From Patescibacteria group bacterium (lineage in GTDB: Bacteria > Patescibacteriota > Microgenomatia > UBA10105 > UBA927): a stretch of 64,000 bases of DNA. Positions 1 to 17,898 of this stretch are shown one piece after another. The first letter of the stretch is position 1. Each line of letters starts with the position of its first letter. The translations under genes and the position numbers were made by a program. The stretch spans positions 1,429 to 65,428 of the forward strand of contig DATKGN010000006.1 of the NCBI GenBank assembly GCA_035510735.1, read 5' to 3'. The notes beneath the pieces are model-generated. The model was not told the DNA's origin, made no database searches, and saw only the letters and a list, made by a program, of their open reading frames with translations.

Positions 1-79
1 ATGGAGTTACGGCTGAAATCTGGGAGGATACGGAATAAAACAGCCCCATACTTTCGCATGAGGCTGTTTATACTTGCTG

Positions 80-708: not shown

Positions 709-2949
709 ATGAAACTTACAGACAACGAAAAACGAGATGTAATTAAATATTTAGAGGCAGGAAAGCCACTTCCTGAAAAATATCGTTTTCTTCTTTTCGA
801 TGACGATCGTGAGGTTGAACTCGTATGGAACGGCAAAACAGACGAAGTAACAAATGTAGTATTGCCTTTTCAAACAATAGAACAGATTGACGAACCAAGG
901 AGCGACGCTAAATTTGGCATGCAGGAGACACTTTTTGATACTTCAGGCAGACAGATAACAGGATGGACTAATAAACTTATATGGGGCGATAACAAACTTA
1001 TTCTTTCCTCATTAAAGAATGGGCCTCTTAGGAAAGAAATTGAAGCGCAGGGTGGGTTAAAACTTATCTATATTGATCCTCCGTTTGATGTTGGCGCGGA
1101 CTTTTCTATGGATATTGAAATTGGTGGCGAAGAATTCATTAAAAAACCATCAGTGATCGAAGAAATTGCTTACCGCGACACTTGGGGCAAAGGTGCAGAC
1201 AGCTTTATTTCAATGATTTATGAGCGTCTTCGACTAATGTATGATTTGCTAGCAGAGAATGGAAGTATTTATATTCATTGTGACTGGAGAGTAAATTCAT
1301 ATATGCGTTTAGTTTTAGATGAAATTTTTAATTATTTTATTGCTGAAATTGCTTGGCAAAAATTAAGATCAGTCAAATCTCAAAGCTTACATTTTTCAAA
1401 TATTAAAGACAGTATATTTATATATTCAAAATCAGATAGGTATGTGTTTAACCCTCAATTTACACCAAAGGACGAAAAATTATTAGAGACTCATTACCGT
1501 CATATTGAAGCGGAGACGGGGCGTCGTTATAACCTTGCTGATTTTACACAAAATGGGAGCGGTCAACCTAGAAAGTTTGGAGAGAGAATTATTTCACCGC
1601 CACCAAATAAGCATTGGATTTGGAGTCAAGAAAAAATTGATGAGGGTATTAAAAATGGAATGATTATGTTTTCAAAAACTGGTACACCGTATGTAAAAAG
1701 GTATTTTGATACAGGTGAGGGCACCAGAGTTGGAGATATTTGGGATGACATTTTTCCAGTTAATCAAGTCGCCGCAGAAAGACTAGATTATCCAACTCAA
1801 AAGCCCGAACTACTTCTGGAAAGAATTATTAAAGCATCTTCTAATGAAGGTGATCTTGTTGCAGATTTTTTCTGTGGATCTGGAACTACACTAGCAGTAG
1901 CAGAGCGATTAGGTAGGAAATGGATTGGTGCTGATTTGGGAAAGTTTGGAATTCATACTTCAAGGAAAAGATTAATTGGTGTTCAACGGGAGCTTAAAAA
2001 AGAAGGAAAAGATTTCCGGGCGTTTGAAATATTAAATGTCGGAAGATATGAAAGGGAGAACTTTTTAGCGGTTAATGATGATTTGCGCACAGAAGAAAGA
2101 GAAAAACAAGCTGAACGAAAAGAAAAAGAATTCGTCAAACTAATACTTTCTGCATACAAAGCAGAACCTGTTGAAGGCTTTATAAATATTTCAGGTAAAA
2201 AACGAGATCGTTTGGTTGCAGTTGGCCCGATAAGTACTCCCGTCTCCTCAAAACTTATTCGGGATATTGTGAGTGAATGTAAAGATAAAAAACTCACGAA
2301 AGTTGATGTACTTGGTTTTGATTATGAGATGGGGATGGACCTACAGGAATATAAAGATCAGGGAATTGATATTGTTTTCCGAATAATACCAAGAGAAGTG
2401 TTTGATAAAAAGGCGGTTGAAAAAGATCAAGTCAAGTTTTACGACGTAGCCTACATAGTAGCAAAACCAATAATAAAAGGGAAAGCGAATAGTAAAGAAT
2501 TATCGATTGAATTAACTGACTTTTCAGTATTTTACAATCAGGACGCAACAGAAGAAACAACAGAAGCACTTCGTCCTGGTGGTGAAAAAGTTATTGTTGA
2601 AAATGGACAGGTAGTAAAAATATCAAAAGATAAAGCCTCAGAAATCGTGTCAAAGGAAATTTTGACTAAAAAGTGGAGTGATTGGATTGATTATTGGGCA
2701 GTGGATTATAATTTCGCAAGTAGAAAAGAAATTGTTGCCGAAATTGATAAAGATGGTAACACTATTGAACGCTGGACTGGCGATTACATTTTTGATAATG
2801 AATGGCAGAGCTTTAGAACCAAGAAAAACAGGAACCTTGAGTTAGTTTCAGCGCCAAAAGAAGTTACCAAAGGCACTTATAAGGTGGCTGTAAAGGTTGT
2901 AGACATATTTGGCAATGACACAACAAGAGTTATGGAGGTGACTGTTTAA
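709..2949 (+). CDS. mod: Type III restriction-modification Mod subunit, N6-adenine DNA methyltransferase (beta class)
   Basis: Motif IV DPPF (IYIDPPFD) precedes motif I FxGxG (ADFFCGSGTT), the beta-class order typical of Type III Mod; res gene follows 1 nt downstream. Confidence 0.85.
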   Translation: MKLTDNEKRDVIKYLEAGKPLPEKYRFLLFDDDREVELVWNGKTDEVTNVVLPFQTIEQIDEPRSDAKFGMQETLFDTSGRQITGWTNKLIWGDNKLILSSLKNGPLRKEIEAQGGLKLIYIDPPFDVGADFSMDIEIGGEEFIKKPSVIEEIAYRDTWGKGADSFISMIYERLRLMYDLLAENGSIYIHCDWRVNSYMRLVLDEIFNYFIAEIAWQKLRSVKSQSLHFSNIKDSIFIYSKSDRYVFNPQFTPKDEKLLETHYRHIEAETGRRYNLADFTQNGSGQPRKFGERIISPPPNKHWIWSQEKIDEGIKNGMIMFSKTGTPYVKRYFDTGEGTRVGDIWDDIFPVNQVAAERLDYPTQKPELLLERIIKASSNEGDLVADFFCGSGTTLAVAERLGRKWIGADLGKFGIHTSRKRLIGVQRELKKEGKDFRAFEILNVGRYERENFLAVNDDLRTEEREKQAERKEKEFVKLILSAYKAEPVEGFINISGKKRDRLVAVGPISTPVSSKLIRDIVSECKDKKLTKVDVLGFDYEMGMDLQEYKDQGIDIVFRIIPREVFDKKAVEKDQVKFYDVAYIVAKPIIKGKANSKELSIELTDFSVFYNQDATEETTEALRPGGEKVIVENGQVVKISKDKASEIVSKEILTKKWSDWIDYWAVDYNFASRKEIVAEIDKDGNTIERWTGDYIFDNEWQSFRTKKNRNLELVSAPKEVTKGTYKVAVKVVDIFGNDTTRVMEVTV

Positions 2950-2950
2950 T

Positions 2951-5659
2951 ATGGCACTACACAAGGATTTTCCTCAAGACCCATATGTAATACTCGACCC
3001 GAGTATTAGATGGTTTCCGGCAGAGGAAGATTTGCGTGAAAAGGGAGGGCTAGAAAAATTACTTCCCCCATTGGTCGCTGATTTGCGTATTAAGGTAAAA
3101 GGCTGGAGAGATAAACATTATGAGGGAGCAAACGATACTTCTAGAGCTCTACTTAATTGGTGGTTTAAAGAAGAACATATTATTTACGACCAACATGGAA
3201 CCGCTTCGAAATTCCAATACTATTTTGCCCAACGGGAAGCGTTGGAAACAGTTATATGGCTTTATGAAGTTGCCAAAGTAAAAGATAAATATGATCTTAT
3301 TCGCTATAACTCCACAGGCGTGTTAAGTGCCGGAATGTTTACCGAAGACTGGTTGCGTTTTGTAATTAAAATGGCAACCGGCGCTGGGAAGACAAAAGTC
3401 ATGAGTTTACTTATCGCTTGGGCATATTTTCATAAAAAGTATGAACAGGACTCTCGCCTGGCAAAAAACTTTCTTTTAATTACACCCAACGTCATCGTGT
3501 TTGAAAGAATTAAAAATGATTTCGAGGGATTAAAAATCTTTTTTTCTGATCCGGTTTTACCTGAAAACGGATATCAAGGACAAAATTGGCAAGATGATTT
3601 CCAAGTGACATTACATCTGCAGGACGAGATAAAAACTATTTCTGATACAGGGAATATATTTTTGACCAACATCCACAGAGTATTCGAAGGAAATATCAAA
3701 GATGCTAGTTTGGATGATGAGGATACCTCTTCATATTTTTTGGGTCATAAACCGGTCACAAAAACAAACGATTCAACAGTCGATTTGGGAATGATTGTCC
3801 GTGATATTGATGAACTAATTGTTATCAATGATGAAGCCCACCATATTCATGATGAGAACATGGCTTGGTATAAATCGATATTAGATATCGACAACAGGCT
3901 AAAACAAAAAGGTTCGGGACTTGCTTTGCAACTGGATATGACAGCAACGCCAAAGAAGAATGATGGCTCGATATTTGTGCAAACGATAACGGACTATCCC
4001 CTTGTTGAGGCCATTCATCAAAGAATTGTCAAAAATCCTGTTATTCCTGACGCCGCCAGTCAAGGGAAACTAAAAGAGAATCAAAGCGCACTGTTTAGTG
4101 AAAAATATCGTGATTACATTAATCTCGGAATCGAGGAATGGCGTAAAACCTATGAGACCCTGAAACCTATGGGTAAGAAGTCAATTCTTTTTATCATGAC
4201 TGATGATACTAAAAACTGTGATGAGGTTGCTGAGTACATAAAGACAAGTTTTTTTGACTTGAAAGATGCAGTTCTGACCATTCATACCAATAAAAGCGGT
4301 GAGATATCTGAAAGTGTTACCGGTAAAAATATCGATGAATTAAATTTACTCAGAAAACAGGCCAATGAAATCGATAGTTGGGAAAGTCCTTTCAAAGTGA
4401 TTGTTTCCGTCATGATGCTGAAAGAAGGCTGGGATGTAAAGAATGTCACTACAATTGTCGGTCTTCGACCTTACGCTGCCGATTCCAAAATTCTTCCGGA
4501 ACAAACACTAGGACGTGGTCTCAGAAGGATGTTTTTTGGACAAAGCGATGTCGAAGAATATGTCAGCGTAATTGGTACACCAATGTTCATGGAGTTTGTG
4601 GAGTCGATTAATAGAGAGGGTGTTATTTTGGAAAGAAGAGAAATGGGAGAAGGATCTAAGGCGATTGCCCCAACAGTCATTGAAGTTGATAAAGAAAATC
4701 CTAATAAAAACATTGAAAAATTGGATATCGAGATTCCGGTTATGACCCCAAGAATACAAAGAGAATATAAAAATCTCGCGAGTTTAGATGTTTCCTTGTT
4801 TGGTAACCCTAAAGTTAAAGTTAAAACTTTTACTGAGGAAGAAAAACGGGAAATTGTATTTAAAGACGTAGTTGATGAAAAAACACACCACACGACTGTT
4901 CTGACTGGTGACGTGGAACCTGATTACAGAAGTGTCGTTGGTTTCTTTGCTCAAGCAATAATGCGTGAATTACGTCTGTTTGGTTGTTACGATATTTTAT
5001 TTGGAAATGTTAAAGATTTTATTCAGAATTATTTGTTTGAGACTCCGGTTGATTTGGAAGATCTAAATGTTCTGAGAAATTTATCAGAAGTTGAGTACAT
5101 AAAGCTCATTAAAGATTCTTTTAAAAAGGCAATAAACAACCTAACTGTTCAAGATAGTGGCGATACAGAAATCAAGAACTACATTAAAGTTAGTGAATCA
5201 CGACCGTTTGTTGTTAATGATAAGGCATACTTATTACCCAAGAAATCCGTTTTCAATAAAATTGTTGGTGATAGTAATTTTGAACTAACTTTTGCTGATT
5301 TCATTGAGAATTGTGACGATGTAATTTCCTTCTCAAAAAACTTTCAAAATAAGGAAGCTAGTGCTTTGAGAATCGAATATAAAAACTCGGAAGGTTTTAT
5401 TGCCACTTATTATCCGGACTTTTTTGTGAAAAAGGACGATAAGACTGTTTATATAGTCGAAACAAAAGGTCGCGAGGAAGAGGACGATAAATTGAAATTC
5501 GAAAGATTGCAAAAGTGGTGTGGGGATGTAAACAACCGGCAAACCAGAGTGGAATATAAAGCTTTATACATTAAGCAGGAAGAATGGGAAAAATACAAAC
5601 CAAAAAGTTTTGATGAGACAGTGAGGTTATTTAGTAGATCAATTGATAATAATGCATGA
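2951..5659 (+). CDS. res: Type III restriction enzyme Res subunit (SF2 helicase + C-terminal PD-(D/E)xK endonuclease)
   Basis: Walker A MATGAGKTKV, DEAH box VINDEAHH, helicase motif VI-like QTLGRGLRR, C-terminal YPDFFVK..IVETKG nuclease motif; adjacent to mod. Confidence 0.85.
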   Translation: MALHKDFPQDPYVILDPSIRWFPAEEDLREKGGLEKLLPPLVADLRIKVKGWRDKHYEGANDTSRALLNWWFKEEHIIYDQHGTASKFQYYFAQREALETVIWLYEVAKVKDKYDLIRYNSTGVLSAGMFTEDWLRFVIKMATGAGKTKVMSLLIAWAYFHKKYEQDSRLAKNFLLITPNVIVFERIKNDFEGLKIFFSDPVLPENGYQGQNWQDDFQVTLHLQDEIKTISDTGNIFLTNIHRVFEGNIKDASLDDEDTSSYFLGHKPVTKTNDSTVDLGMIVRDIDELIVINDEAHHIHDENMAWYKSILDIDNRLKQKGSGLALQLDMTATPKKNDGSIFVQTITDYPLVEAIHQRIVKNPVIPDAASQGKLKENQSALFSEKYRDYINLGIEEWRKTYETLKPMGKKSILFIMTDDTKNCDEVAEYIKTSFFDLKDAVLTIHTNKSGEISESVTGKNIDELNLLRKQANEIDSWESPFKVIVSVMMLKEGWDVKNVTTIVGLRPYAADSKILPEQTLGRGLRRMFFGQSDVEEYVSVIGTPMFMEFVESINREGVILERREMGEGSKAIAPTVIEVDKENPNKNIEKLDIEIPVMTPRIQREYKNLASLDVSLFGNPKVKVKTFTEEEKREIVFKDVVDEKTHHTTVLTGDVEPDYRSVVGFFAQAIMRELRLFGCYDILFGNVKDFIQNYLFETPVDLEDLNVLRNLSEVEYIKLIKDSFKKAINNLTVQDSGDTEIKNYIKVSESRPFVVNDKAYLLPKKSVFNKIVGDSNFELTFADFIENCDDVISFSKNFQNKEASALRIEYKNSEGFIATYYPDFFVKKDDKTVYIVETKGREEEDDKLKFERLQKWCGDVNNRQTRVEYKALYIKQEEWEKYKPKSFDETVRLFSRSIDNNA

Positions 5660-5729
5660 AATTTACTCGGAAAGCTTAAGAGATCCTTTGAGAGGTTTTT
5701 AAATATTTCAAGTGAATGACTGAATTAAA

Positions 5730-6740
5730 ATGATTAAAAAAATAGACAACAAAGAACTGAGAGAAATAATTCAAAGTGGCCACCTAAACGTGCTTGTTGG
5801 TTCTGGGTGTTCTTTAAATTACCTATCAACTTTAAAGGGTATAGAAGATAAGATGAACGTCGAAGCAACCAAAGAATCCGCTCAAAAAGATTATTACAAG
5901 TTGATAAAAAAATCTAAAGCAATCTTATATGAATCACTTGAAACGAATGCTGCTGAAAAGATAAAATTAAGCGACACAAAGGAAAATTATGATTCATTTC
6001 TTACGTTCTGGGCAGACACTGTATCCAAAAGATCTCTTCATATAGTCAATAAACAGGTAAACTTTTTTACAACTAATTTTGACATGTTTATGGAAGATTC
6101 TTGCGAAAGATTAGGGGTTCCTTACAATGATGGGTTCACTGGGCAAATCAATCCGATTTTCAGCGTTGCAAATTTTAATAAAATACAGAAATATAAGAGT
6201 TTACAGTTTGATAACACTTCTGACATACCTCTATTTAATCTAATAAAGCTACATGGATCTGTCTCATGGGTTGCAAAAGGTGAGAAAATTACCTACTCAG
6301 ACAGTTCTCATATCCCAGATAATTTGGCTACCAAATCAGGATCTGATTTTAGTAAACAATACAGAAAAATTGCAGTGATTAATCCTAATGCAGAAAAACA
6401 TTTTGAAACAGTTCTTGATACAAACTATGCTTCAATGTTAAGAAAGTTTACTCTAGAACTTGAGAAGGAAAACAGTGTTTTGGTCGTTGTTGGTTTTTCT
6501 TTAGAGGATAAACATATCAAAGATCTTCTCTATGGTGTCATGAAATCAAATCCTACTTTGATAGTAGTCTATTTTTCTTACTCTCAGTATGACGAGACGC
6601 TCGACAAACTAGAAGAAAAAAAGAATTCAAATTTATATATAATTTCACCTGAAAATAATTTTTCTTTTGAAAAAAGTGTTAAATACCTCTCTGAAGTTTT
6701 TGCACCCCAAAGAGACGATATACAACATGATGAAGAATAG
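5730..6740 (+). CDS. SIR2-like (SIR2_2 family) defence protein, partner of HerA
   Basis: NVLVGSGCS, TTNFD (cf. conserved TTNYD) and KLHGSVSW motifs of the SIR2_2 family; 3' end overlaps the HerA-like gene. Confidence 0.75.
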   Translation: MIKKIDNKELREIIQSGHLNVLVGSGCSLNYLSTLKGIEDKMNVEATKESAQKDYYKLIKKSKAILYESLETNAAEKIKLSDTKENYDSFLTFWADTVSKRSLHIVNKQVNFFTTNFDMFMEDSCERLGVPYNDGFTGQINPIFSVANFNKIQKYKSLQFDNTSDIPLFNLIKLHGSVSWVAKGEKITYSDSSHIPDNLATKSGSDFSKQYRKIAVINPNAEKHFETVLDTNYASMLRKFTLELEKENSVLVVVGFSLEDKHIKDLLYGVMKSNPTLIVVYFSYSQYDETLDKLEEKKNSNLYIISPENNFSFEKSVKYLSEVFAPQRDDIQHDEE

Positions 6741-8637
6741 CTTCAATCTACAAGATACCCTAGTCAGCAACTCAATATTTGTTATTGGGAGTGTCTTCAG
6801 TGTTAAGGGAAAAGATATTGTAATCAAGGTTAACAAAGATAAAAACCTTCCTCACCTGTTTTTTAAGGGTAAAACAATTAAGAATGTGTCTGTTGGGCTA
6901 TCTAATTATGTAAAAATAACCAAGGGCTTTACTGAGATTATATGCAAGGTTGAAGGTGAATTTTTAGAGGAAGATAAATTTCAAGCAAGTAAAAAATACA
7001 TAAACGAAAAACAAAAAATAGAACGATTCCTCAATGTATCGGTTTTTGGTTTTTATGATAGTGATAATCGATTCCAACATGGCATTAAGGAAATGCCATT
7101 AATCGGTAGTGAGTGTAAATTGCTCACAAGAGATGAATTTGAAATTTTACATCAATTATCTAATGGAACTGAGTTATCAATAAATCTAGGATCACTAATC
7201 GATGAGGAAACCCAAAGCATTAACCTCTCTATAAAGAAATTATTTGCTGGACATATTGGCATATTTGGTAATACCGGATCTGGAAAATCGAATACCTTAG
7301 CAAGGATGTATACAGAGTTATTTAAGTTGCCAAATTTAAATGATAACTTTAATAAAAAATCTAAGTTTATTTTTATAGATTTTAATGGAGAATATTCTAA
7401 AGATAGTGATGATCAAATTTTAACAGCAAATAAAGTTGTCTATAAATTACGAACAAAGGATAATAATGGCTCCAAATACCCAATTTCCAAAGCAGAAATT
7501 GAAAAAATGGAACTTTTATCCATATTGCTTAATGCTACTGAAAAAACACAACAACCATTCTTACATAGAGCTATAGACAGAGACTGGTATGACAACGACA
7601 ACGATGACCATCACAAGGAAGTTCAAAGTATAAACCAAAAGTTAAAAGACATCCTTTTGATGAAAAATAAAGAGTTTAATGTTCCTTTTTTGAAGAAATA
7701 CGTAAAAGACTTTGAACAACTAGGTTTTAAAGTCGTTAATGATAACAAAAATATTGACGATTTGAAATATCATGGTAATGATAATTGTACTTTCTATACT
7801 GGTCAAGGAACTACTGCTGTTTACGCAGATACAAACGAAGGTCATTTTATAGGGGTTGATGGATATTTTAACGTATCTATCTCTACAACTGAAGGTTTGA
7901 GTGACTTGCAAAAAATACAATTCAAAATAATAGACCAATATTACTTTGAGATTTTAAATGGATATGCAAATGATGAACACATCAATCCCCTTATGGGTAG
8001 ATTGAAAAAGCGATTTGACATGTTATCTAAGGTAGTTGAAATTAAGGACTCTTCTCAAACCAACGGAGAAAATGTTGATGTAACACCTTGTAATATAGAG
8101 GTAATTGATCTTAAAAATGTCAATTTTGAACTTAAAAAAGTTGTTCCATTACTTATTTGTAAAACAAACTACGATGAACAAAAAAATAGAAGGGATACCG
8201 ATAAAGAGAATTCTCTTCATATCATAATTGATGAGGCACATAGCATTTTGTCGGAAAACTCAAACAGAGAGGCTGAATCCTGGAAGGATTATAGACTCGA
8301 AACATTCGAGGAAATTATAAAAGAAGGTAGAAAGTTTGGAGTTTTCCTTACAATTGCAAGCCAACGACCGTCTGACATATCGCCAACTATTATTTCGCAG
8401 TTACATAATTATTTTATTCACAAATTAATGAATGAAAATGATTTGAAATCGATTAATAGAGCTGTTAGTTATTTAGATAAACTTTCCTTCGATTCAATAT
8501 CAAATCTTTCTACGGGATGCTGTTTCATCGCAGGACAAATGACACAATTTCCATTGTCAGTAAAAGTAAAACTGCTTGATAAAAATATTCGACCACAAAG
8601 TGAAACAATCGACTTAGATAAATTATGGAAACAATAA
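6727..8637 (+). CDS. HerA/FtsK-like ATPase of SIR2-HerA system
   Basis: Walker A GNTGSGKSNT, Walker B IIIDEAHS, C-terminal ASQRPSD region typical of HerA (DUF87). ORF track starts at TTG 6667; ATG at 6727 gives a 14-nt overlap with the SIR2 gene. Confidence 0.75.
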   Translation: MMKNSFNLQDTLVSNSIFVIGSVFSVKGKDIVIKVNKDKNLPHLFFKGKTIKNVSVGLSNYVKITKGFTEIICKVEGEFLEEDKFQASKKYINEKQKIERFLNVSVFGFYDSDNRFQHGIKEMPLIGSECKLLTRDEFEILHQLSNGTELSINLGSLIDEETQSINLSIKKLFAGHIGIFGNTGSGKSNTLARMYTELFKLPNLNDNFNKKSKFIFIDFNGEYSKDSDDQILTANKVVYKLRTKDNNGSKYPISKAEIEKMELLSILLNATEKTQQPFLHRAIDRDWYDNDNDDHHKEVQSINQKLKDILLMKNKEFNVPFLKKYVKDFEQLGFKVVNDNKNIDDLKYHGNDNCTFYTGQGTTAVYADTNEGHFIGVDGYFNVSISTTEGLSDLQKIQFKIIDQYYFEILNGYANDEHINPLMGRLKKRFDMLSKVVEIKDSSQTNGENVDVTPCNIEVIDLKNVNFELKKVVPLLICKTNYDEQKNRRDTDKENSLHIIIDEAHSILSENSNREAESWKDYRLETFEEIIKEGRKFGVFLTIASQRPSDISPTIISQLHNYFIHKLMNENDLKSINRAVSYLDKLSFDSISNLSTGCCFIAGQMTQFPLSVKVKLLDKNIRPQSETIDLDKLWKQ

Positions 8638-8673
8638 TTTAAATAAAGAGTCCATCTTAAAAGATTTCTTTGA

Positions 8674-9453
8674 GTGTATAAAAGTAATTTAAATAATATG
8701 TCCAAATACTACAATCCCAACCGAACACGTAATTTATATAACTCCGATTCTTTGGAGACTTTCCGTATCAGCCGGAGTAAAATTGACCTTTTTATCAATT
8801 GTCCTCGTTGTTTTTATCTTGATCGTAGGTTAGGAGTCGCTCAACCACCTGGATATCCATTTTCTCTCAATACTGCTGTCGATAAGCTTCTCAAGAAGGA
8901 ATTTGACAGGCATAGAGCCAATGGGACAGCCCATCCCCTAATGAAAGTTTATGGAATTGATGCCGTGCCTTTGTCACACGAAAAAATAAATGAATGGCGG
9001 GATTCACTTAGAGCAGGGATAACTTTTAAGATTGATAGCGAAAATGTAGTCATAACCGGCGGGGTTGATGATGTCTGGGTCAAACCCGATGGTGAATTTA
9101 TCATTGTTGATTACAAAGCTACTTCCAAAGAAGAAGAAGTGACGTTAGATGCTGACTGGCAAATCGGCTATAAACGCCAAATGGAGATATACCAGTGGTT
9201 ATTCCGAAAGAATGGCTTTCGCGTCTCCACAACTGGTTATTTTGTGTATTGTAATGGCAATACTGACAAAGAAGCTTTTGACGGTAAACTGGAATTTGAT
9301 ATTAAGATTATTCCATATGTTGGTGATTATTCCTGGGTCGAGAAGACCGTCCATGAGGCTATTGAATGTTTAAAAAGTGATACTCTTCCGGAATCCGGAG
9401 ACGATTGTGATTACTGTAAATATCGAAAAGCCGTTAGCCGTTTTGAAAAATAG
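8674..9453 (+). CDS. Cas4-like PD-(D/E)xK nuclease with Cys cluster (DUF83-like), stand-alone
   Basis: N-terminal CPRCFYL, VDDVW..IVDYKAT nuclease core, YKRQMEIYQWL and C-terminal CDYCKY, the Cas4/AddB-like Fe-S nuclease pattern. GTG start at 8674; alternative ATG at 8698. No cas1/cas2 or CRISPR array nearby. Confidence 0.6.
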   Translation: MYKSNLNNMSKYYNPNRTRNLYNSDSLETFRISRSKIDLFINCPRCFYLDRRLGVAQPPGYPFSLNTAVDKLLKKEFDRHRANGTAHPLMKVYGIDAVPLSHEKINEWRDSLRAGITFKIDSENVVITGGVDDVWVKPDGEFIIVDYKATSKEEEVTLDADWQIGYKRQMEIYQWLFRKNGFRVSTTGYFVYCNGNTDKEAFDGKLEFDIKIIPYVGDYSWVEKTVHEAIECLKSDTLPESGDDCDYCKYRKAVSRFEK

Positions 9454-9456
9454 ATC

Positions 9457-9816
9457 ATGGACAAAGAACATCATGATAGTTTTGGAGATTTCTTAGGAGC
9501 ACTTTTCCAATTATTTTTACTAGGTGCGATTATATATTTTCTGTTTTTAGTCATTTGGGGAATTTTCAAGTTAGTTTTGTGGTTACTCAAACGTATTTGG
9601 CAATTAATAACGTGGGTATGGTTTCAGATTAGAAAACACGCCGTCTTACAATACAGAATAAATAGGCTAAACTTGGCCACTCATGCTTTTCTTTTGAGAC
9701 ACGGCAAGATTAATCGAATTATGTTATGTATCCGTACCTATTTCTTAATCTTTTGGACAAGTCGACCATCCGAGTTATTTAATAAACTGAGCAAATCAAT
9801 AGATACGAACGTTTAA
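9457..9816 (+). CDS. small Trp-rich membrane protein, hypothetical
   Basis: ATG 3 nt after preceding stop; strongly hydrophobic N-terminal segment (LGALFQLFLLGAIIYFLFLVIWGIFKLVLWLL). Confidence 0.45.
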   Translation: MDKEHHDSFGDFLGALFQLFLLGAIIYFLFLVIWGIFKLVLWLLKRIWQLITWVWFQIRKHAVLQYRINRLNLATHAFLLRHGKINRIMLCIRTYFLIFWTSRPSELFNKLSKSIDTNV

Positions 9817-9844
9817 AAAATATTGACCGTATTAATTAATATTT

Positions 9845-10357
9845 ATGGCAATAATTAGTAATAAATACTCACTGAAAAAAGCTTGTTTAAGAAATTCAAA
9901 AAACTTACTTAAGGAATCAACAAGATTACTTAACCGAAAAAAGTATGCGTGGGCTACCTTTCTAGCTATAACCTCCTTCGAAGAAAGTCAAAAGTTAGGT
10001 CTTTTACACATGCTTGAGGCTAATTACTTATCTGAATCTAAATTTAATAAATTTTGGCGAAGTCATGAGTATAAAATAAGGTCAAAAGATGCACGTATAA
10101 GATTTAATTTCGATACCAGCGAAAAAATAAAACCTACGTTAGTTTTAGGATCAAAACAAGAAGCTCATGAGGTTATGAATATGCGAGAAAGTTGTTTATA
10201 CGTCGATTTTGCCGAAAAGTCGATATCTGAGCCTCTCAAAATCAACATAGCGATTGCTATACAATATATCAATGAAGCAACCAGAGAGCTAGAGTCCGCT
10301 AACTTTTTAGAGTTGTTACAAAAAAGGTTACATAGAGTACTTAAAGTTAAAAAATAA
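9845..10357 (+). CDS. AbiV-like abortive-infection family protein (tentative)
   Basis: N-terminal helix pattern C..N...LL.E...LL......A.FLA..S.EE..K, as I recall for the AbiV family; size 170 aa fits. Confidence 0.4.
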   Translation: MAIISNKYSLKKACLRNSKNLLKESTRLLNRKKYAWATFLAITSFEESQKLGLLHMLEANYLSESKFNKFWRSHEYKIRSKDARIRFNFDTSEKIKPTLVLGSKQEAHEVMNMRESCLYVDFAEKSISEPLKINIAIAIQYINEATRELESANFLELLQKRLHRVLKVKK

Positions 10358-10361
10358 AACT

Positions 10362-11138
10362 ATGAATGACGATCAATTAAGTTTAACAAAGAAGAAATTT
10401 CCGATACTGTTTTCCTTTTCTCAAGATTACACAGGCAGTGATTACAATGACATCAGGCAATTATTTAGAGATAAGCCAGTCTTAATTTTTGGTGAAGACT
10501 ACTGGTCAAAATATGAGCAATCCCTTCAATCTTTAACTGAAAAAGACAAACAATATTTGTTCGGTAAACTTAAAACCTTAACTAAAAGAATTGATGAAAA
10601 GGCGGGTTGGCCTCATTTCGAAGAAAGACTAAATGAAGCATTGGCTTATAGATATCTTCAAAAAAATGGTTACAAAAAAATACGGTTTATTGACGAAAAC
10701 ACTAAGAATGGACGAAAACCAGATTTAGAAATCCTAAATGCGAATGACTCACTTAATGGACTAGTGGAGGTAAAAACCATTAGATTCTCCCTTGACGAAT
10801 ATGCAGCCGTCAAAAAGGAATTAGAAACAGGTAAAGGAAGATTTTTGCCAATGCAAGTGAACAAAAATCTTTATAAAAAAATTACCGATGATCTAGATAA
10901 AGCAGTAAAACAACTGACTTACCAGGGTTCCGCATCAATATCTTTACGGAGAATTTATCTTTTTCTTAATTTAGACGCCGGAGTCTTAATGGATCTCATA
11001 TTTACCCCAGATAGCGATTTACAAAACTTTATTTGTCAAACTAAAAAAACTTTGGATAAGAATAATCATATTGACTTAAAAACGTATTTACTTGGTGGTA
11101 TTCCCGGAGAGCCAAAAGAGCTCAAATGCAAAGGCTAA
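10362..11138 (+). CDS. hypothetical protein with PD-(D/E)xK-like motif
   Basis: GRKPDLEIL...GLVEVKTI resembles a PD..(D/E)xK restriction-endonuclease-fold core; starts 4 nt after the AbiV-like gene. Confidence 0.4.
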   Translation: MNDDQLSLTKKKFPILFSFSQDYTGSDYNDIRQLFRDKPVLIFGEDYWSKYEQSLQSLTEKDKQYLFGKLKTLTKRIDEKAGWPHFEERLNEALAYRYLQKNGYKKIRFIDENTKNGRKPDLEILNANDSLNGLVEVKTIRFSLDEYAAVKKELETGKGRFLPMQVNKNLYKKITDDLDKAVKQLTYQGSASISLRRIYLFLNLDAGVLMDLIFTPDSDLQNFICQTKKTLDKNNHIDLKTYLLGGIPGEPKELKCKG

Positions 11139-11165
11139 TCCTGCGTTGATGTATACTATTCCTGT

Positions 11166-11390
11166 ATGCTTAACCCACAGGATGAAAAGACTAGGCAGGA
11201 CATTGCGTCGAAATTGAAAAAGTACCGTCTCAAAAAAGGCTTGTTTCAAACCGATGTAGCTAAGAAAGCTGGTTTGAACAGCAATTTTTACTCGAAAGTT
11301 GAACGCGGTGATGCTATTCCATCTGTGATTACACTTAAAAAGATTTTGGGGGCGCTTGGGGTTAAATCTTCAGAAATTCTCTCGTTTTAA
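11166..11390 (+). CDS. XRE-family helix-turn-helix transcriptional regulator
   Basis: Classic HTH_3 pattern LKKYRLKKGLFQTDVAKKAGLNSNFYSKVERGDAIPSVITLKKI. Confidence 0.75.
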   Translation: MLNPQDEKTRQDIASKLKKYRLKKGLFQTDVAKKAGLNSNFYSKVERGDAIPSVITLKKILGALGVKSSEILSF

Positions 11391-11608
11391 TTCTTCTTCA
11401 TTTCTATCTCGTGCAGAAGTTCTTTGTATTCCTTTTCAAGTTCTTCCGGTTCAAAATGAGCCATGGTGTGATAATGGGCTTTGAGATGCTCCAGTAAAGC
11501 CATCGCCATTTCCGGTGTAGCATGTTCGGGGTCAGTGGCTTTCAAAAATTTGAGAACACCGTCGATATCTTTTTCGTTTAACTGATACCCACCTGTCTTT
11601 GTCGTCAT
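11387..11608 (-). CDS. small hypothetical protein downstream of serine recombinase
   Basis: 73-aa ORF, helical/acidic composition, co-oriented 8 nt downstream of the recombinase. Confidence 0.35.
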   Translation of the reverse strand: MTTKTGGYQLNEKDIDGVLKFLKATDPEHATPEMAMALLEHLKAHYHTMAHFEPEELEKEYKELLHEIEMKKN

Positions 11609-11616
11609 GCGAGTTA

Positions 11617-13086
11617 TTATACCTCAAATAAGGGATTAATTTTTGGATAGCTCAATCCGGGATAATTCCAAACGAAACCGCGTGGAAATATGGTACTTAA
11701 AATTGCTTTTTGATTATCAACGGATATATGCATATATGTGTTGTATATATTCTCTAGATTGGAATTCATATATGTAATACAGGTTGAAAGCGTATATTCC
11801 TGTAGAAAAGATTTTTTAATCGATAACTTTATTCGGTCAATATTATCGCTCAATAGCGCGTTTTGCTCGCAAAATACCTCGTCTGTATAGAGACCGGATA
11901 AATGTTTATGGACGAGGTTCGTTCGCATAGCGATAAGTTTGCCTACGAGTTGTTCTCTTTTTGCCTTATACATCCTGATTTTCGAGTACCGTCTTTCATA
12001 TTCCTCCTGTAGGAGTTTATAAATAATCACACGACCAAGCTTGGACAGCTTCATTCTCGTTAATAGTGACTTTAATAACTTATGGAGCTTTTCGGCCGGT
12101 ACATACGGCGAATGACACAATTGCGATTTGTAACACCAATAATATGGATACTTCTTCAAGTGACCACTACACCATGAGCCGGTAAATCCGAGTCCGCATT
12201 TTCCGCACTTTACTATTCGACGTAATGGAAAATCAACATTCGGTGGATTTCGAAGCACCAAGGATGGTTTATTATGTCGACCGTCGAGTATTGCCTGAAC
12301 TTTCTCAAACAGCTCTTTTGAAACCATAGGCTCATGTTGCCCGTGGACCTCTTCGTTGTATCGCTTGGAAACAAGAAAACCGGCATAAAATTTTGAGCGA
12401 AATATCCGGTGTACCGTTTGACGCCGGATAAGATACTTTTGGTTGTTAATAGTGGTTCGTAATCCCCAAGAATTCATGATGTTCGTCATCTCACGAAGTG
12501 ACTTTGTACCCGTGGCCATCAATTCCCAGGCTTTTTTCACCTGATCCCAGACTTTGGTATCTTTAAAGACATATCCTTCATGGCGGATATATCCTAATTG
12601 TGCCTTTCCGGAACAAAGCAATCCTGATTGAAACCGTGCGTGCATACCGTTTCTTGCACGCTCACTTTTCATCTCATTATCAAGTTGTGCAATTCCTGCA
12701 TAAAAATTACCAATGAATTTGCCCATAGGAGTATCATCAACCGGCTCTGTTGCTGAAATAAGTTTAATTCCCATTCTATTCAGTTTCTCCTTTATGATGA
12801 GGTAGTCTGTCATCTGCCGAGACAAACGATCGGTTTTGTAAAATACAACAGCCTGAACATCTTTTGTATGCCGTCGGCAATATTCGAGAAGTTTGATCAG
12901 TTCAATTCTACCTGTGATAGTTTTTGCGGATTTTCCTTCTTCACGATATACCTGCGTAACGACATAACCTAACCGATCAGTTTCGCGCCTGCACACTTCT
13001 TCCTGTGTGCCCATAGAATAGTTATCGACCTGTTCCTCTGTTGATACCCGAAGATAAAGAATTGCTTGTTTTTGTGTTAGTTTCAT
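11617..13086 (-). CDS. large serine recombinase (resolvase/integrase family)
   Basis: N-terminal resolvase domain with catalytic Ser (YLRVSTEEQ), DRLSR motif, recombinase domain and C-terminal zinc ribbon (CGKCG...WCSGH...YWCYKSQLC). Confidence 0.85.
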   Translation of the reverse strand: MKLTQKQAILYLRVSTEEQVDNYSMGTQEEVCRRETDRLGYVVTQVYREEGKSAKTITGRIELIKLLEYCRRHTKDVQAVVFYKTDRLSRQMTDYLIIKEKLNRMGIKLISATEPVDDTPMGKFIGNFYAGIAQLDNEMKSERARNGMHARFQSGLLCSGKAQLGYIRHEGYVFKDTKVWDQVKKAWELMATGTKSLREMTNIMNSWGLRTTINNQKYLIRRQTVHRIFRSKFYAGFLVSKRYNEEVHGQHEPMVSKELFEKVQAILDGRHNKPSLVLRNPPNVDFPLRRIVKCGKCGLGFTGSWCSGHLKKYPYYWCYKSQLCHSPYVPAEKLHKLLKSLLTRMKLSKLGRVIIYKLLQEEYERRYSKIRMYKAKREQLVGKLIAMRTNLVHKHLSGLYTDEVFCEQNALLSDNIDRIKLSIKKSFLQEYTLSTCITYMNSNLENIYNTYMHISVDNQKAILSTIFPRGFVWNYPGLSYPKINPLFEV

Positions 13087-13265
13087 ACGTCTATATTAGT
13101 AAGTAGTTCATCAAGTGTTTTTCCTTCAAATATTTGCTGTTCTACAGTATTGAGCCAAACATCAACCAAATATTGTAGTTCGGAAATAGTTGTTTGAATT
13201 TCGTCGTCATTCATCTGAATGCCGTCTTTCTGTAACAGTTCGCGGATTTCGTCTAATTTATCCAT
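13083..13265 (-). CDS. small acidic hypothetical protein (possible recombination directionality/accessory factor)
   Basis: 60-aa ORF overlapping the recombinase start by 4 nt, 3 nt downstream of the PLD gene. Confidence 0.35.
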   Translation of the reverse strand: MDKLDEIRELLQKDGIQMNDDEIQTTISELQYLVDVWLNTVEQQIFEGKTLDELLTNIDV

Positions 13266-13268
13266 AGT

Positions 13269-13766
13269 TCAATAAATAAATCTACTTAATTTTAGATACT
13301 CAAACATTTCTTGTGACATACTGCTACTTTGGATTCTGCGCATTATTTCACGGCTGCACGTTTGGGAGAGAATGTTGAGGCTACCTTCCCAGAGTACTTT
13401 CCGATCAATGATAGCCAGTTTCCGGTGGGAGTATTCGTTGCTGATTAATACTTGGATTCCCATTGTTTCAAATTGCCTGATCTCACATTCAGCCTGTCGT
13501 TTGAGATTAGGATCGTGGTCGTCCGGATCACGGGTAATAACGTAAACTTTGACTTTCCTTCGAACCAGCTCCGCAAAGACCGCTGTCAGATGAAATACGC
13601 GTTGGGAGGTAATGAATGGGCTTTCGATGATAACTTCCGTTCTGGAGCGTTTAAGATCGGCTATAAACCGTTTGTAGAACGTGGTCTCGTCGAACAGTTG
13701 AGATTGGACAAGGTCGGGTGACAGATGGAACAGTTTTTTAACACCAGACAGGACAAGGTTATTCAT
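13269..13766 (-). CDS. phospholipase D-family (single HKD) nuclease, Nuc-like
   Basis: Exact HxKx4Dx6GSxN motif (HRKLAIIDRKVLWEGSLN); 165 aa like dimeric Nuc/BfiI-type endonucleases; RBS AAGGAGG 4 nt upstream of ATG. Confidence 0.7.
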   Translation of the reverse strand: MNNLVLSGVKKLFHLSPDLVQSQLFDETTFYKRFIADLKRSRTEVIIESPFITSQRVFHLTAVFAELVRRKVKVYVITRDPDDHDPNLKRQAECEIRQFETMGIQVLISNEYSHRKLAIIDRKVLWEGSLNILSQTCSREIMRRIQSSSMSQEMFEYLKLSRFIY

Positions 13767-13908
13767 GATCCTCCTTTTTCCCGTTTAAATCGGGTATAAT
13801 AACAATAACTTTGCCGTCACAGTAGGTAAATCCGAGTTTCTGAAGTTTTTCGTACGTAGCCAGGAGACTTGGGAGTATAGTGTTCCACCTACGGGACAGC
13901 TCGCTCAC
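13759..13908 (-). CDS. candidate small ORF (49 aa, GTG start) overlapping the PLD start
   Basis: Protein-like translation VSELSRRWNTILPSLLATYEKLQKLGFTYCDGKVIVIIPDLNGKKEDHE; no SD; below ORF-track length cutoff. Confidence 0.2.
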   Translation of the reverse strand: MSELSRRWNTILPSLLATYEKLQKLGFTYCDGKVIVIIPDLNGKKEDHE

Positions 13909-13947
13909 AAAGAAATTGAGGTTAATTATTCAGTATTGAATTTAGGT

Positions 13948-14142
13948 TTAATAGGGTTGGGTAATACTCGTTGGTTCTATAACCATAAATCTACTTAGAG
14001 GATTCGTAAATACTTCCGGAATATTATCTGGCACACACCACCATCCGCAGGTAAGAGTATTTCCTTTCGGACCAATTTCACCCAAACTCTTCGGTAAAAC
14101 GGTGCCGATCTCATTTAGAAAATCCATATCTTCCTGAGTCAA
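13948..14142 (-). CDS. hypothetical, probably the 3' part of a frameshifted PRTase-like gene
   Basis: TTG-start 64-aa ORF; its frame stays open and protein-like upstream into the 216-aa ORF region. Confidence 0.3.
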   Translation of the reverse strand: MTQEDMDFLNEIGTVLPKSLGEIGPKGNTLTCGWWCVPDNIPEVFTNPLSRFMVIEPTSITQPY

Positions 14143-14789
14143 TACATCCTCAAGTAACGGAATTTTTTGAGAATCTGCAACCCATACGTCAACATAATTC
14201 TCTTTAGCCTTTTCTCTGCCCAGGCACTTGAATACAATACGTATGCGTGAACTTTAGGATATCGTCCTTTACCAGAAGCCTCCCAGACAAGATCGAGTAT
14301 CTGATTCTTGACATGGGCAGTAGAAATTAACCAGTCTTCAATAATGTATAAATTGGTTTTTCCTCTGATCATTTTCGGTGTCACGCTAAGCCCTTCGCCT
14401 GTTGATATTTCGCTTGCTGCTTTTTTCAACCCCAGACCGCATAATTGTTCGTAAATCCAATGGCTACTCCTGCTAACAGGAAAATAGATGTAATGAAATG
14501 GCCCCTCTTGAGCTTTTTCGGTTAATGCAACCGCCATTTTTTTTAGATTCGTATCAAATGATTCTTTACTGATAAAATGGAATCCGTCTGCTAATCTATT
14601 AAGAAAAAGCTCCGGTGGGTTTGCTTCTAATATCGCCGTGGCACCCTGAACACTCCTGTCATAGGTTGTTGGAATATGTTTGTCTAGCAGAATCTGCGCA
14701 AATTGTTGAGGAGTTAAAGGCTCATTTGGAATAGGCAGTCGATCAGCTAGTCTACCTGAGTTCTCTACTCTGTAGGTTTGTTCTGCCAT
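14139..14789 (-). CDS. phosphoribosyltransferase (PRTase type I)-like domain protein, possibly disrupted
   Basis: NLYIIEDWLISTAHV resembles the PRPP-binding motif (cf. pyrE in this window, NVLVIEDLVSTGKS) but with Gly/Lys replaced. Confidence 0.35.
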   Translation of the reverse strand: MAEQTYRVENSGRLADRLPIPNEPLTPQQFAQILLDKHIPTTYDRSVQGATAILEANPPELFLNRLADGFHFISKESFDTNLKKMAVALTEKAQEGPFHYIYFPVSRSSHWIYEQLCGLGLKKAASEISTGEGLSVTPKMIRGKTNLYIIEDWLISTAHVKNQILDLVWEASGKGRYPKVHAYVLYSSAWAEKRLKRIMLTYGLQILKKFRYLRMY

Positions 14790-14907
14790 AAATTATTTAT
14801 AATTCGTGAAAATTTTGTTGCTCATAGAGAGTATAGATGATTTTAGCACCCAGGATCAACACCTATGAACGCGTACTGATGAAACGAAAAGATAAAACTC
14901 CAAAAAA

Positions 14908-15408
14908 TTAAAATCTCTCAAGAAAGCCGAAATGATCGTATTTATTAAGTAGACTATTAACACCTCTTTCGCCCTCGCTGAGACCGTCAATCTTTTCTAA
15001 AGGTGGTAACTCGAGAGTTGTTTTATGGGGTCGTAATCCCGATTCAATAACTACGTTTTCGGCAGCTAATATATGAAAACTTGTGATCTGCTTACTCTCT
15101 TTTAGTATACCTTGATTCATAGACCTTTCGAGCGCATGGATGAGACGCGAATAATATTCCATAAGCTGGATTGAATTTTGATCTCCACTGCTTGCCAATT
15201 CATCGACAACTCCTACCCCTCCACTCTCATGGATAAGAAGGGAAACGACGGAAAGTTCCTCAAAACGAGGATGACGAAGAATTTCAAGTATTCGGGGATA
15301 CGGATCTGACATTCCATCTCTTTTAACGTTTCTAGAATAGCGTTTTATGGTGCTAACTGTTGTAGTGCCATCAAAGTTTGGAAACGCAAGGTCAATTTGC
15401 TTACGCAT
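14908..15408 (-). CDS. hypothetical protein
   Basis: 166-aa ORF, no recognised motif. Confidence 0.35.
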   Translation of the reverse strand: MRKQIDLAFPNFDGTTTVSTIKRYSRNVKRDGMSDPYPRILEILRHPRFEELSVVSLLIHESGGVGVVDELASSGDQNSIQLMEYYSRLIHALERSMNQGILKESKQITSFHILAAENVVIESGLRPHKTTLELPPLEKIDGLSEGERGVNSLLNKYDHFGFLERF

Positions 15409-15485
15409 TTAAATATTATAGGATTATACAGATTATAAAGCAAATTCTGCCTTCGCTCCGAATATCTCGATTTGAAATAATTTAG

Positions 15486-15530
15486 GCGGGATTGGTTCAG
15501 GGTTCGAATCTCCCGCGTGCGGGATCTCGC
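15486..15530 (+). other. tRNA-like fragment: T-arm consensus GGTTCGAATC inside a GCGGGAT...TCCCGC mini-hairpin, followed by a second GCGGGAT
   Basis: Canonical T-loop sequence GGTTCGAATC is present, but D and anticodon arms are missing and the 7-nt acceptor partner is absent upstream; lies at the junction between AT-rich island and core genes. Confidence 0.3.
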
Positions 15531-15590
15531 TTCGCTCAATACGACGTGTTTCGCTTGCTCAACCGTGCGGGCTCACAAGAGAAGGTGTGA

Positions 15591-17252: not shown

Positions 17253-17459
17253 TGTACATCAGGGTGGTCCGAAAACATATGCCAGTGTTTCTCCTTCCAT
17301 AGAGTACTTGATACGGTCAAGTAATTATGGCGGAATACGCAGTGTTCCAAATCTTGATACGTTGATGCAATAACAGAAAACACACCGTATATCATGATAA
17401 TGCTTCAGATTGACAAAGTGTTTTGTTGTACTGTAGATTACAGAAGAAAGGAATCCTCT

Positions 17460-17882
17460 ATGAAAACAGATAACAAGAAGACCACGACATTCACACAGGG
17501 GGAACGGGACGCCATGAAGGCGCGCGTCCAGGAACTGCGTGGGGCCGAGGTGGACGGAGAAAAAGTAGTACTCGCGAAGATCGCCGAGATGAAAGAACCG
17601 GATCACGCCATGGCTAAACAGCTCCATGCAATCGTCAAAGCCAGTACCCCAGGCCTCACCCCGAGGCTCTGGTACGGGATGCCCGCGTATGCCAAGAACG
17701 GCAAGGTTGTCTGTTTCTTCCAAAGCGGTGCTAAGTTCAAAACGAGGTACGCGACGTTGGGCTTCAGCGACGCGGCAAAACTCGATGACGACGCTATGTG
17801 GCCAACCGCCTCTGCGCTAACGAAGTTGACTGCAGCCGAAGAGGCAAGGATTGCCGCACTCGTGAAGAGGGCGGTTAGCTAA
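17460..17882 (+). CDS. DUF1801 (YdhG-like) domain protein
   Basis: ATG 17460 with AAGGA upstream; WYGMPAY..GKVVCFF pattern; GC-rich. Confidence 0.5.
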
Positions 17883-17898
17883 AGAAAGGAAATCAAAT

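Follow-up and report, generated by a model that had tools for sequence, protein, structure and literature searches.

A large serine recombinase pair as a recurrent but optional insert in a Patescibacterial nuclease cassette

The window analysed here is a stretch of 64,000 nucleotides from an uncultivated, ultra-small Patescibacteria group bacterium (contig DATKGN010000006.1, assembly GCA_035510735.1), in which a gene coding for a phospholipase D (PLD)-family nuclease is followed on the same strand by a small open reading frame (ORF) named orf60, by a gene coding for a large serine recombinase and by a second small ORF, orf73. Sequence comparison of related loci indicates that the pairing of nuclease and recombinase is real and recurrent, yet optional, and that it does not constitute a dedicated nuclease-recombinase machine. 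In the explanation that we favour, and to which we give slightly better than even chances, two modules are nested in one another, an outer cassette organized around the PLD gene and an inner guest made of orf60 and the recombinase. The recombinase is missing beside 77 of 91 PLD genes, which makes its module an optional guest of the nuclease cassette, and the small ORFs are to be divided between the two modules, orf60 going with the recombinase and orf73 with the PLD gene. A preliminary description of this DNA had suggested the opposite hierarchy, with the nuclease as cargo of the integrase, a proposal that our comparison does not support; it had also placed both small ORFs in a single operon, and of this we retain that the two are real and under selection, orf60 being the partner of the recombinase and orf73 that of the PLD gene. 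The features of the locus are the following:

13759..13908, minus strand: orf49, with a GTG start, a conserved small protein with the motif RRWN..PSL..TYEKL.KLGFTY
13269..13766, minus strand: PLD gene, single-HKD PLD-superfamily nuclease of 165 amino acids (aa), signal peptide not apparent
13083..13265, minus strand: orf60, acidic protein predicted to form three helices, upstream partner of the recombinase family
11617..13086, minus strand: large serine recombinase of the integrase type, 489 aa, with the N-terminal catalytic motif YLRVSTEEQ
11616..11621, minus strand: TATAAT box, 7 nt 5' of the orf73 ATG, with the recombinase stop codon (11617-11619) inside it
11387..11608, minus strand: orf73, small and mildly acidic, the usual gene 3' of PLD
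11166..11390, plus strand: XRE-type helix-turn-helix (HTH) regulator (Pfam HTH_3, 2.9e-13), convergent with orf73

The ORF list reproduces exactly the positions previously given, as well as the 3 nt between the PLD stop and the orf60 start and the 4-nt overlap of orf60 with the recombinase; the recombinase stop lies 8 nt from the orf73 start, orf49 overlaps the PLD gene by 8 nt, and the stop codons of the HTH gene and orf73 overlap by 4 nt (11387-11390). The ratios of nonsynonymous to synonymous substitution rates (dN/dS) were 0.03-0.10 for PLD, 0.04-0.11 for orf60, 0.05 for the recombinase, 0.09-0.21 for orf73 and 0.01-0.05 for the HTH gene, a purifying selection from which it follows that the ORFs of the locus did not arise by chance. 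A terminator scan revealed no terminator-like site between the four minus-strand genes, so that the operon stands as a run of genes without such a separation; as a single functional unit it is not supported, since two modules share it. The promoter scan returned fewer promoter-like sites than shuffled sequence and is uninformative. The sole minus-strand terminator-like hairpin 3' of orf73 (11238-11252) is located inside the convergent HTH gene and, given also the 4-nt stop overlap, the transcripts of PLD/orf73 and of the HTH gene would overlap in antisense, which could possibly serve a regulatory interaction.

The nuclease cassette

An alignment search with the PLD protein yielded over 590 confirmed copies among species-representative genomes, of which the best 80 loci were kept. 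Their neighbourhoods were compared using tblastn and all-against-all clustering, the counts given below being based on 80, 86 or 91 PLD loci or genes; loci are cited by our own numbers (L001 and following). Most belong to metagenome-assembled genomes (MAGs) of Patescibacteria, and some genomes have two or three copies. The conserved unit consists of orf49, PLD and orf73, in that order, with the convergent XRE-HTH gene, which the preliminary description had not included. A gene of the orf73 family directly follows PLD in 67 of 86 loci and the HTH gene is present in 65 of these 86, the window copy being 99% identical to that of L001. Homologues of orf49 were detected by tblastn in 33 of the 80 related loci with indels that are multiples of three, so that the 49-codon ORF earlier noted across the PLD start proves to be a conserved small gene. 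Its first base (GTGAGCG) marks the left edge of the cassette, the sequence upstream being unrelated in every locus. The right edge corresponds to the HTH promoter region, around position 11144, where homology to L001 stops. DNA homology between the window and L001 (88-90%) is limited to 11144-11593 and 13341-13908. These sharp limits define the cassette as a discrete unit and the recombinase pair as an insert within it.

The PLD protein carries the catalytic motif H114-R-K116-x4-D121-x6-G128-S129-L-N131 in one copy per chain. In an alignment with 23 homologues, H114, K116, D121, S129 and N131 were invariant and G128 nearly so; the HxKx4Dx6GSxN motif recognized earlier is thus intact and its catalytic residues are conserved. 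The protein matched Pfam PLDc_2 (2.3e-13) and was modeled using AlphaFold2 with a pLDDT of 81, the first 20 residues being of low confidence. Over the whole chain, the best Foldseek matches of the model were Zucchini (4ggj), Helicobacter pylori NucT (6ehi) and Nuc of plasmid pKM101 (1byr), the latter with TM-scores of 0.69/0.75 and a root-mean-square deviation of 2.7 Å. The two-domain lipid enzymes, PLD and cardiolipin synthase, were matched via one domain only (TMt 0.2-0.3), and a profile search of the sequences in the Protein Data Bank (PDB) found only Zucchini/MitoPLD. On the basis of the predicted fold, the protein is best assigned to the single-HKD nucleases of the Nuc/NucT/Zucchini type and not to the lipid enzymes, in agreement with its initial classification as Nuc-type. 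The likeness to BfiI proposed at the same time does not extend beyond the catalytic domain, because the window protein has no DNA-recognition domain.

Like Nuc (pKM101/R46), NucT and Zucchini/MitoPLD, the window enzyme has one HKD motif in a chain of about 150-170 aa, an intact His/Lys/Asp/Asn set and the same fold (TM-scores of 0.62-0.75), with sequence identity of only 14-22%. As each chain provides a single HKD motif, one active site requires two chains, and by analogy we expect a homodimer in which the site is shared. Nuc and NucT are exported or membrane-associated; the window protein, in contrast, has no apparent signal peptide or membrane anchor. No hydrophobic signal-like segment was seen by inspection of its N-terminus (MNNLVLSGVKKLFHLSPDLVQSQLFDE), no dedicated predictor having been run, and judging from this sequence the protein is presumably cytoplasmic. 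Its C-terminus exists in the family as two exchangeable variants. The window enzyme is further distinguished from Nuc, NucT and Zucchini by its cassette, where two small proteins and an XRE regulator accompany it, and it is a new member of this class in a new genomic setting.

A phage or plasmid origin of the PLD protein was rejected, as a search of 50,697 phage records and 72,556 plasmid records found no relative. PADLOC matches were obtained at the domain level only (MkoC 7e-12, DrmC 4e-5, DpdK 1e-3), the NCBIfam DpdK model scored 18.9 bits against a cut-off of 100, and no neighbouring protein matched the Drm, Mko or Dpd models of PADLOC, as would the partner genes of DISARM, Mokosh or Dpd systems. 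Beyond these three hits to the PLD domain, the cassette matches none of the curated toxin-antitoxin (TA) and defence families. It resembles type II TA and effector-immunity pairs in combining a potentially toxic enzyme, a small protein that co-occurs with it and has a promoter of its own, and an XRE regulator, and it resembles the defence-island hotspots that are delimited by anchor genes in that the PLD/orf73 pair borders a slot occupied by differing defence systems. By analogy, we infer that the PLD cassette could be a module of the toxin-immunity or abortive-defence type.

Regarding the partner of the nuclease, 22 of 53 loci (42%) have an exact TATAAT no further than 48 nt from the PLD stop on its 3' side, versus 1.9% of background windows, and the box is found in loci occupied by the recombinase pair as well as in empty ones. 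In the window, the last codons and the stop of the recombinase (TTT GAG GTA TAA) run into this box. From its sequence, we assign to orf73 a predicted TATAAT promoter of its own. Searches of Pfam, NCBIfam and PADLOC assigned the protein to no family; its position and the analogy with effector-immunity pairs suggest that it may act as inhibitor or immunity factor of the PLD nuclease.

Additional observations concern orf49 and the surroundings of the cassette. In two independent pairs of loci (window 13759-13908 with L001 9858-10004, and L003 with L004), the synonymous divergence (pS) of orf49 was far below that of PLD (0.09 vs 0.53 and 0.11 vs 0.51), and at longer range the ORF looks coding despite this low value. 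As a structured RNA, the region gave no Rfam match and an RNAalifold energy of -2.4 kcal/mol without covariation. An embedded PLD promoter/operator, or a recombination site at the cassette edge, are possible explanations. In 12 loci (cluster c9, including L002, L007, L026, L040, L054 and L098), the opposite strand directly upstream of the cassette codes for a stand-alone GIY-YIG protein of about 90 aa, and such proteins also occur near the recombinase relatives of L084 and L090. A Levybacteria MAG (L023) has two PLD-HTH cassettes 3 kb apart (7217-7654 and 10001-10438), and a 1.13-Mb Microgenomates genome (contig JBAZXP010000001.1; L022, L031, L071) has three, only one of them beside a type IV secretion system (T4SS) operon. 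In L012 (690-890), the PLD 3' end and the start of the downstream gene are apparently duplicated in tandem; this was considered as a recombination footprint and rejected, as the region spans a run of Ns and is most likely a scaffolding artefact.

The orf60-recombinase pair

The recombinase matched Pfam Resolvase, the N-terminal catalytic domain with the nucleophilic serine (5.4e-29; residues 8-155, sequence AILYLRVSTEEQ), PF07508 Recombinase, corresponding to the first DNA-binding domain (DBD1; 1.3e-11, residues 181-270), and PF13408 Zn_ribbon_recom, corresponding to the second (DBD2; 8.3e-8, residues 287-339). This architecture of resolvase, DBD1 and DBD2 is that of SPbeta SprA/SprB, TP901-1 Int/Orf7 and the A118-type systems, and identity to the phage serine integrases is about 25% over the full length. 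At a threshold of E<=1e-40, the search gave 1043 relatives, of which almost all are metagenomic proteins without a name. The NCBIfam models for IS607 (20 bits for a cut-off of 110), XisF (77 for 375) and CcrB (83 for 900) all scored below their cut-offs. By domain content and scores, the protein qualifies as a bona fide large serine integrase outside the curated subfamilies CcrB, XisF and IS607.

All recombinase relatives that were examined, with identities ranging from 98% to 41%, have a member of the orf60 family directly upstream, including those in loci without a PLD gene nearby, and across the family the orf60 stop and the recombinase start usually overlap. The C-terminal motif WLD.FEREIFEGKTL.ELL is kept throughout. 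The orf60 product has an isoelectric point (pI) of 4.05, compared with 9.67 for the recombinase, and its AlphaFold2 model consists of three helices with a pLDDT of 90. In phage SPbeta, the directionality factor SprB is a helical protein of 58 aa that binds DBD2 and the coiled-coil hinge of the integrase (PMC11722253). With its 60 aa and predicted helices, orf60 resembles SprB, and in a preprint directionality factors are described as lacking a common fold (bioRxiv 10.1101/2024.08.21.608926). By this analogy, orf60 is a candidate directionality factor or cofactor. The pair differs from the phage serine integrases in that the partner gene always stands directly upstream and is translationally coupled, and in that the clade to which the window belongs is cargo-less.

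In one recombinase clade (about 50-100% identity), PLD, orf60 and recombinase follow each other in 12 of the 12 loci with a visible upstream region, showing that the pairing first noted in the window is not unique to it. Relatives at 70, 60, 53 and 51% identity (L099, L098, L100 and L101, respectively) all have the order PLD, ORF of 57-60 aa, recombinase; three of them continue into orf73, the HTH gene and defence genes, and in L100 the recombinase abuts a T4SS-like operon. In loci of the window type, the insert is reduced to the two genes alone, about 1.65 kb with zero cargo and a spacer of 1-9 nt. At 46-49% identity (L102/L103, L104, L105), an orf60-like ORF and the recombinase are found at the edge of multi-gene integrative elements that carry Replic_Relax proteins, TrwB/TraG-like ATPases, HTH regulators and a Gp49/HTH TA pair, together with a reverse transcriptase, a KAP NTPase or a type I restriction-modification (R-M) system, and that adjoin housekeeping genes. 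At 41-42% identity, the pair follows winged-HTH proteins (L087, L088), and in further relatives at 42% (L009, L016, L008) it lies on the other side of the HTH gene of a PLD cassette. From this gene content, orf60 and the recombinase appear to serve a family of integrative elements of Patescibacteria as their integration module. The Daviesbacteria element of L102 and L103 has, directly upstream of the orf60-like ORF and recombinase, a gene (5706-6740 and 1955-2977, respectively) for an RVT_1 reverse transcriptase of about 340 aa, possibly a retron or a defence cargo of the DRT type.

Elements in which a recombinase is lodged precisely between or within host genes are known from XisF (fdxN element), SpoIVCA (skin) and IS607, with which the window insert also shares a precise presence/absence polymorphism and a content of little beyond the recombinase. 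In contrast to the fdxN and skin elements, it interrupts no coding sequence and has no developmental context. The IS607 transposases, for their part, are small serine recombinases with another domain order, and the window recombinase does not belong to their family by score.

Distribution and transfer of the insert

Among the 80 loci, orf60 and the recombinase are found between PLD and orf73 in only three (L002-L004). In a neighbour-joining (NJ) tree of 91 PLD genes, 11 are occupied, 77 are empty and 3 are of undetermined state, and at least seven changes of state are required, all at one position. From the PLD stop to the orf73 ATG, about 25 empty loci have 1-31 nt (mostly 5-31) and the occupied loci 1654-1661 nt. 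Close relatives differ in state: L094 and L095, whose PLD proteins are 97 and 82% identical to that of the window, are occupied, L001 (87%) is empty, and L096 (PLD 90%, orf73 96%) has an unrelated 67-aa ORF in the PLD/orf73 gap. Several occupied PLDs have their closest relative among the empty ones, such as L099 with L005 (87% identity) and L101 with L022 (79%). The nuclease is present in empty and occupied alleles alike, for which reason a role as homing-type nuclease for the insert was rejected.

The histories of insert and cassette do not coincide. Between two PLD clades, A (window, L094, L096, L001, L095) and B (L002-5, L081), divergence amounts to 30-41% for PLD and to 41-52% for orf73. 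The PLD of L095 is 82-89% identical to clade A and 62-64% to clade B; its recombinase, in contrast, is closer to clade B (88-90%) than to those of the window and L094 (85-86%). Within clade B, PLD proteins are 95-97% identical and recombinases 87-89%. The divergence of the recombinase is thus uncoupled from that of the cassette and, considered along with the changes of state, implies repeated precise gain, loss or exchange. The insert of the window also retains donor-type flanks of about 70 nt and 35 nt. On one side, PLD is of the clade-B type over its last 24 codons and, on the other, the orf73 5' untranslated region and its first five codons (MTTKTGG) match those of the occupied L085 (MTIKTGG) and not those of L001/L096 (MSKIGG), the remainder of PLD and orf73 being 86-96% identical to L001/L096. 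From these flanks, it follows that the insert reached the window by homologous recombination.

The pair is not the only occupant of such positions. Small unrelated genes of 67-197 aa, one of which was tested and gave no family match, are hosted in the PLD/orf73 gap (L096 at 699-902, L015, L036, L066, L068) and in the orf73/HTH gap (L005, L031, L068), which makes the recombinase pair only one kind of insert.

Taken together, we propose that the PLD homodimer would be a nuclease with the potential to damage its own cell, kept in check by orf73 and under the control of the XRE protein, and that the two-gene module would first have entered the PLD/orf73 gap by site-specific recombination, from which it could still excise, with orf60 acting on the recombinase as SprB acts on the SPbeta integrase. 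Once there, orf60 and the recombinase would be transcribed by read-through from the PLD promoter, and the module would otherwise spread between related cassettes through homologous recombination, its persistence being that of a guest, selfish or semi-domesticated, in a niche that is safe and transcribed. The insertion point lies between the PLD stop (+1-9 nt) and TTTGAGGTATAAT. The empty L005 gap has TTTGAGGTATAAT, identical to the right junction of occupied loci and in part the promoter box common to all loci, and its TTTGAGG is suggestive only.

Several points weigh against this proposal. At least the last transfer took place by homologous recombination, for which recombinase activity is unneeded. 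Attachment sites, terminal repeats, a shared core or a dyad were not found at the occupied and empty junctions of 15 loci, and the apparent scars in empty gaps, compared with the orf60 start, were not significant (p 0.08-0.25 for the best candidates). A compact layout kept to about 50% identity under strong purifying selection fits a selected function at this position at least as well as it does a selfish element. Constant co-translation with the integrase is unusual for directionality factors, orf60 has no Foldseek match to any solved structure in the PDB, integrase complexes with directionality factors included (E<=0.001), and the orf73 family is not uniformly acidic, its median pI being 6.3. 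Finally, all data derive from MAGs and short metagenomic contigs.

A related but stronger claim would be that orf60 and the recombinase form an autonomous element of 1.65 kb, devoid of cargo and promoter and coding over its entire length, with its attachment site in the gap of a few nucleotides between the nuclease and its immunity-like partner. Such an element would borrow the transcription of the host operon, its own frame ending in the -10 box of the partner gene, and the flanking toxin and immunity genes would protect it from sloppy deletion. We regard this as doubtful.

Neighbouring genes and biological meaning of the locus

Beyond the cassette, the window contains the following features:

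80-457, minus strand: DUF2958 protein (3.5e-18), at the window start, beyond the defence genes
709..11138, plus strand: low-GC defence cargo in the variable slot beyond the HTH gene, assigned with Pfam and PADLOC, and comprising the next seven entries
709-2949, plus strand: type III R-M Mod
2951-5659, plus strand: type III R-M Res
5730-6740, plus strand: SIR2
6667-8637, plus strand: HerA (PADLOC HerA 3e-172), overlapped by SIR2
8674-9453, plus strand: Cas4-like PD-(D/E)XK nuclease, followed by an ORF of 119 aa
9845-10357, plus strand: AbiV
10362-11138, plus strand: protein of 258 aa without assigned family
13948..15408, minus strand: three co-directional ORFs (64, 216 and 166 aa) that separate the cassette from the PMT-type glycosyltransferase gene
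15591-17252: housekeeping PMT-type glycosyltransferase gene

The three ORFs at 13948..15408 have no family match and no homologue in any related locus by tblastn, which places them outside the conserved cassette. The GC content is 30-42% from position 1 to about 15.5 kb and 45-50% beyond; in the defence block (709-11138) it is 0.30-0.38, compared with 0.45-0.50 in the remaining window. A segment at 33496-33657 is weakly similar to the 258-aa protein (43% over 58 aa, E 6e-5), and homologues of the type III R-M genes are also found near the PLD cassettes of L051 and L072. In relatives, defence functions dominate the equivalent slot, which contains CBASS cyclases with AGS-C and Cap15, AbiEii, QatA, ThsB-TIR, SduA (Shedu), AriA/B (PARIS), KAP NTPases, C5-methyltransferases and PifA. 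In 33 of the 80 loci, among them L018, L034, L044 (10520 onwards), L049, L072, L074, L078 and L079, the HTH gene is followed by zero to seven variable genes and then by a convergent, conserved T4SS-like operon encoding an M23 peptidase, a VirB4/TraG-P-loop ATPase, a TraC-N-like protein, PrgI and two polytopic membrane proteins; no gene intervenes in eight of the 33. The HTH gene has the same direction as the end of this operon. From these gene contents, we conclude that the cassette of the relatives borders a defence-gene hotspot beside a chromosomal T4SS-like operon. In L001, a locus without recombinase, a direct repeat of 64-70 bp (about 84%) of the HTH promoter and first ~45 coding nt (10900-10990 and 13200-13275) brackets a 2.2-kb insertion of two genes (171 aa, and 550 aa with a MauJ-like domain) and is the footprint of a cargo insertion at the HTH 5' end.

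This neighbourhood raises the question of whether the recombinase could be the integrase of a larger element, ending near 15.5 kb and beyond the window start, in which the PLD cassette and the low-GC defence genes would be contained, the nuclease being a cargo or an addiction module. The location of the relatives at 46-49% identity, at the edges of elements with TA, R-M, KAP NTPase and reverse transcriptase genes, would agree with this, as would the lower GC of the first 15.5 kb, the DUF2958 gene, whose domain is usual on plasmids and integrative conjugative elements (ICEs), and the sharp homology edges of a cassette that occurs in unrelated contexts and sometimes in two or three copies per genome. 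However, the recombinase is not at the edge of the island and has conserved cassette genes on both sides, and in most loci the same cassette, hotspot and comparable defence cargo exist without it. Moreover, the window has no tRNA gene, no other classical attB was found nearby, and blastn-short and repeat searches over positions 1-18000 detected boundary repeats of a larger island at no more than chance level. The T4SS that neighbours the cassette in relatives is described as chromosomal, near-ubiquitous in Patescibacteria, MPF-FATA-like and mostly without relaxase (PMC12102498). The window, past whose start the side with the slot continues, contains no T4SS-like genes and general family scans returned no relaxase-type match among the neighbour proteins, so that the more specific reading as an ICE is weakened as well. 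We regard the larger element as unlikely.

The nuclease could alternatively be tied to the T4SS, as a secreted effector or as a processor in DNA or nucleotide scavenging, with orf73 as immunity protein and the recombinase incidental. Nuc is encoded on a conjugative plasmid and NucT comes from H. pylori, so that both structural relatives identified by our fold match belong to a T4SS-bearing plasmid or organism; the succession of cassette and T4SS-like operon described above, to which the L100 recombinase adds a direct contact, the separate orf73 promoter, which fits the logic of an immunity gene, and the two exchangeable variants of the PLD C-terminus point in the same direction. Against this, 47 of the 80 loci have no T4SS genes within 10 kb, as is also the case for the window itself, and genomes with three cassettes have a single copy beside the T4SS. 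The survey of Patescibacterial T4SS does not list PLD among the families found near virB4 and mentions neither PLD nor the recombinase (PMC12102498), and the proximity may reflect a shared integration hotspot. We consider a functional link of this kind improbable.

Least probable of all, and in our opinion very unlikely, is a domesticated recombinase devoted to local rearrangement for its host (a switch of PLD/orf73 expression, or the capture and shuffling of slot genes) instead of its own movement, for although its long retention at one fixed, compact position under strong purifying selection, the diverse small genes in the PLD-orf73 and orf73-HTH gaps of the loci named above and the L001 repeat around two cargo genes are consistent with it, the window has no inverted or direct repeats usable as sites, slot variability and cargo turnover are equal in recombinase-free loci, and inverted variants of the window-type module were not seen in related loci.

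We found no description in the searchable literature of the cassette, of its position beside the T4SS found in the candidate phyla radiation (CPR), or of a cargo-less large serine recombinase module in an operon gap. With a mechanism that is so far only proposed, these findings are of interest for CPR biology and for specialists of mobile elements. They reveal a nuclease cassette of four genes, uncharacterised and yet very common among Patescibacteria, as indicated by its copy number in species-representative genomes, that provides a practical anchor for locating CPR defence islands as well as a candidate toxin-immunity or effector pair. They also delineate, among the serine integrases of the CPR, a large family for which a small partner is obligate and of which one clade is reduced to a bare two-gene module in a fixed operon gap. 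If this module is self-mobile, it would be an unusual mobile element nested inside a toxin-partner gene pair and a minimal, well-delimited system of integrase, cofactor and target, with a possible use in genome engineering; if, in addition, it is autonomous, it would be the smallest self-mobile large serine recombinase element described and would represent a new lifestyle for this class of enzymes. If it is not self-mobile, it would instead be a clean example of an insert that spreads via homologous recombination between related cassettes.

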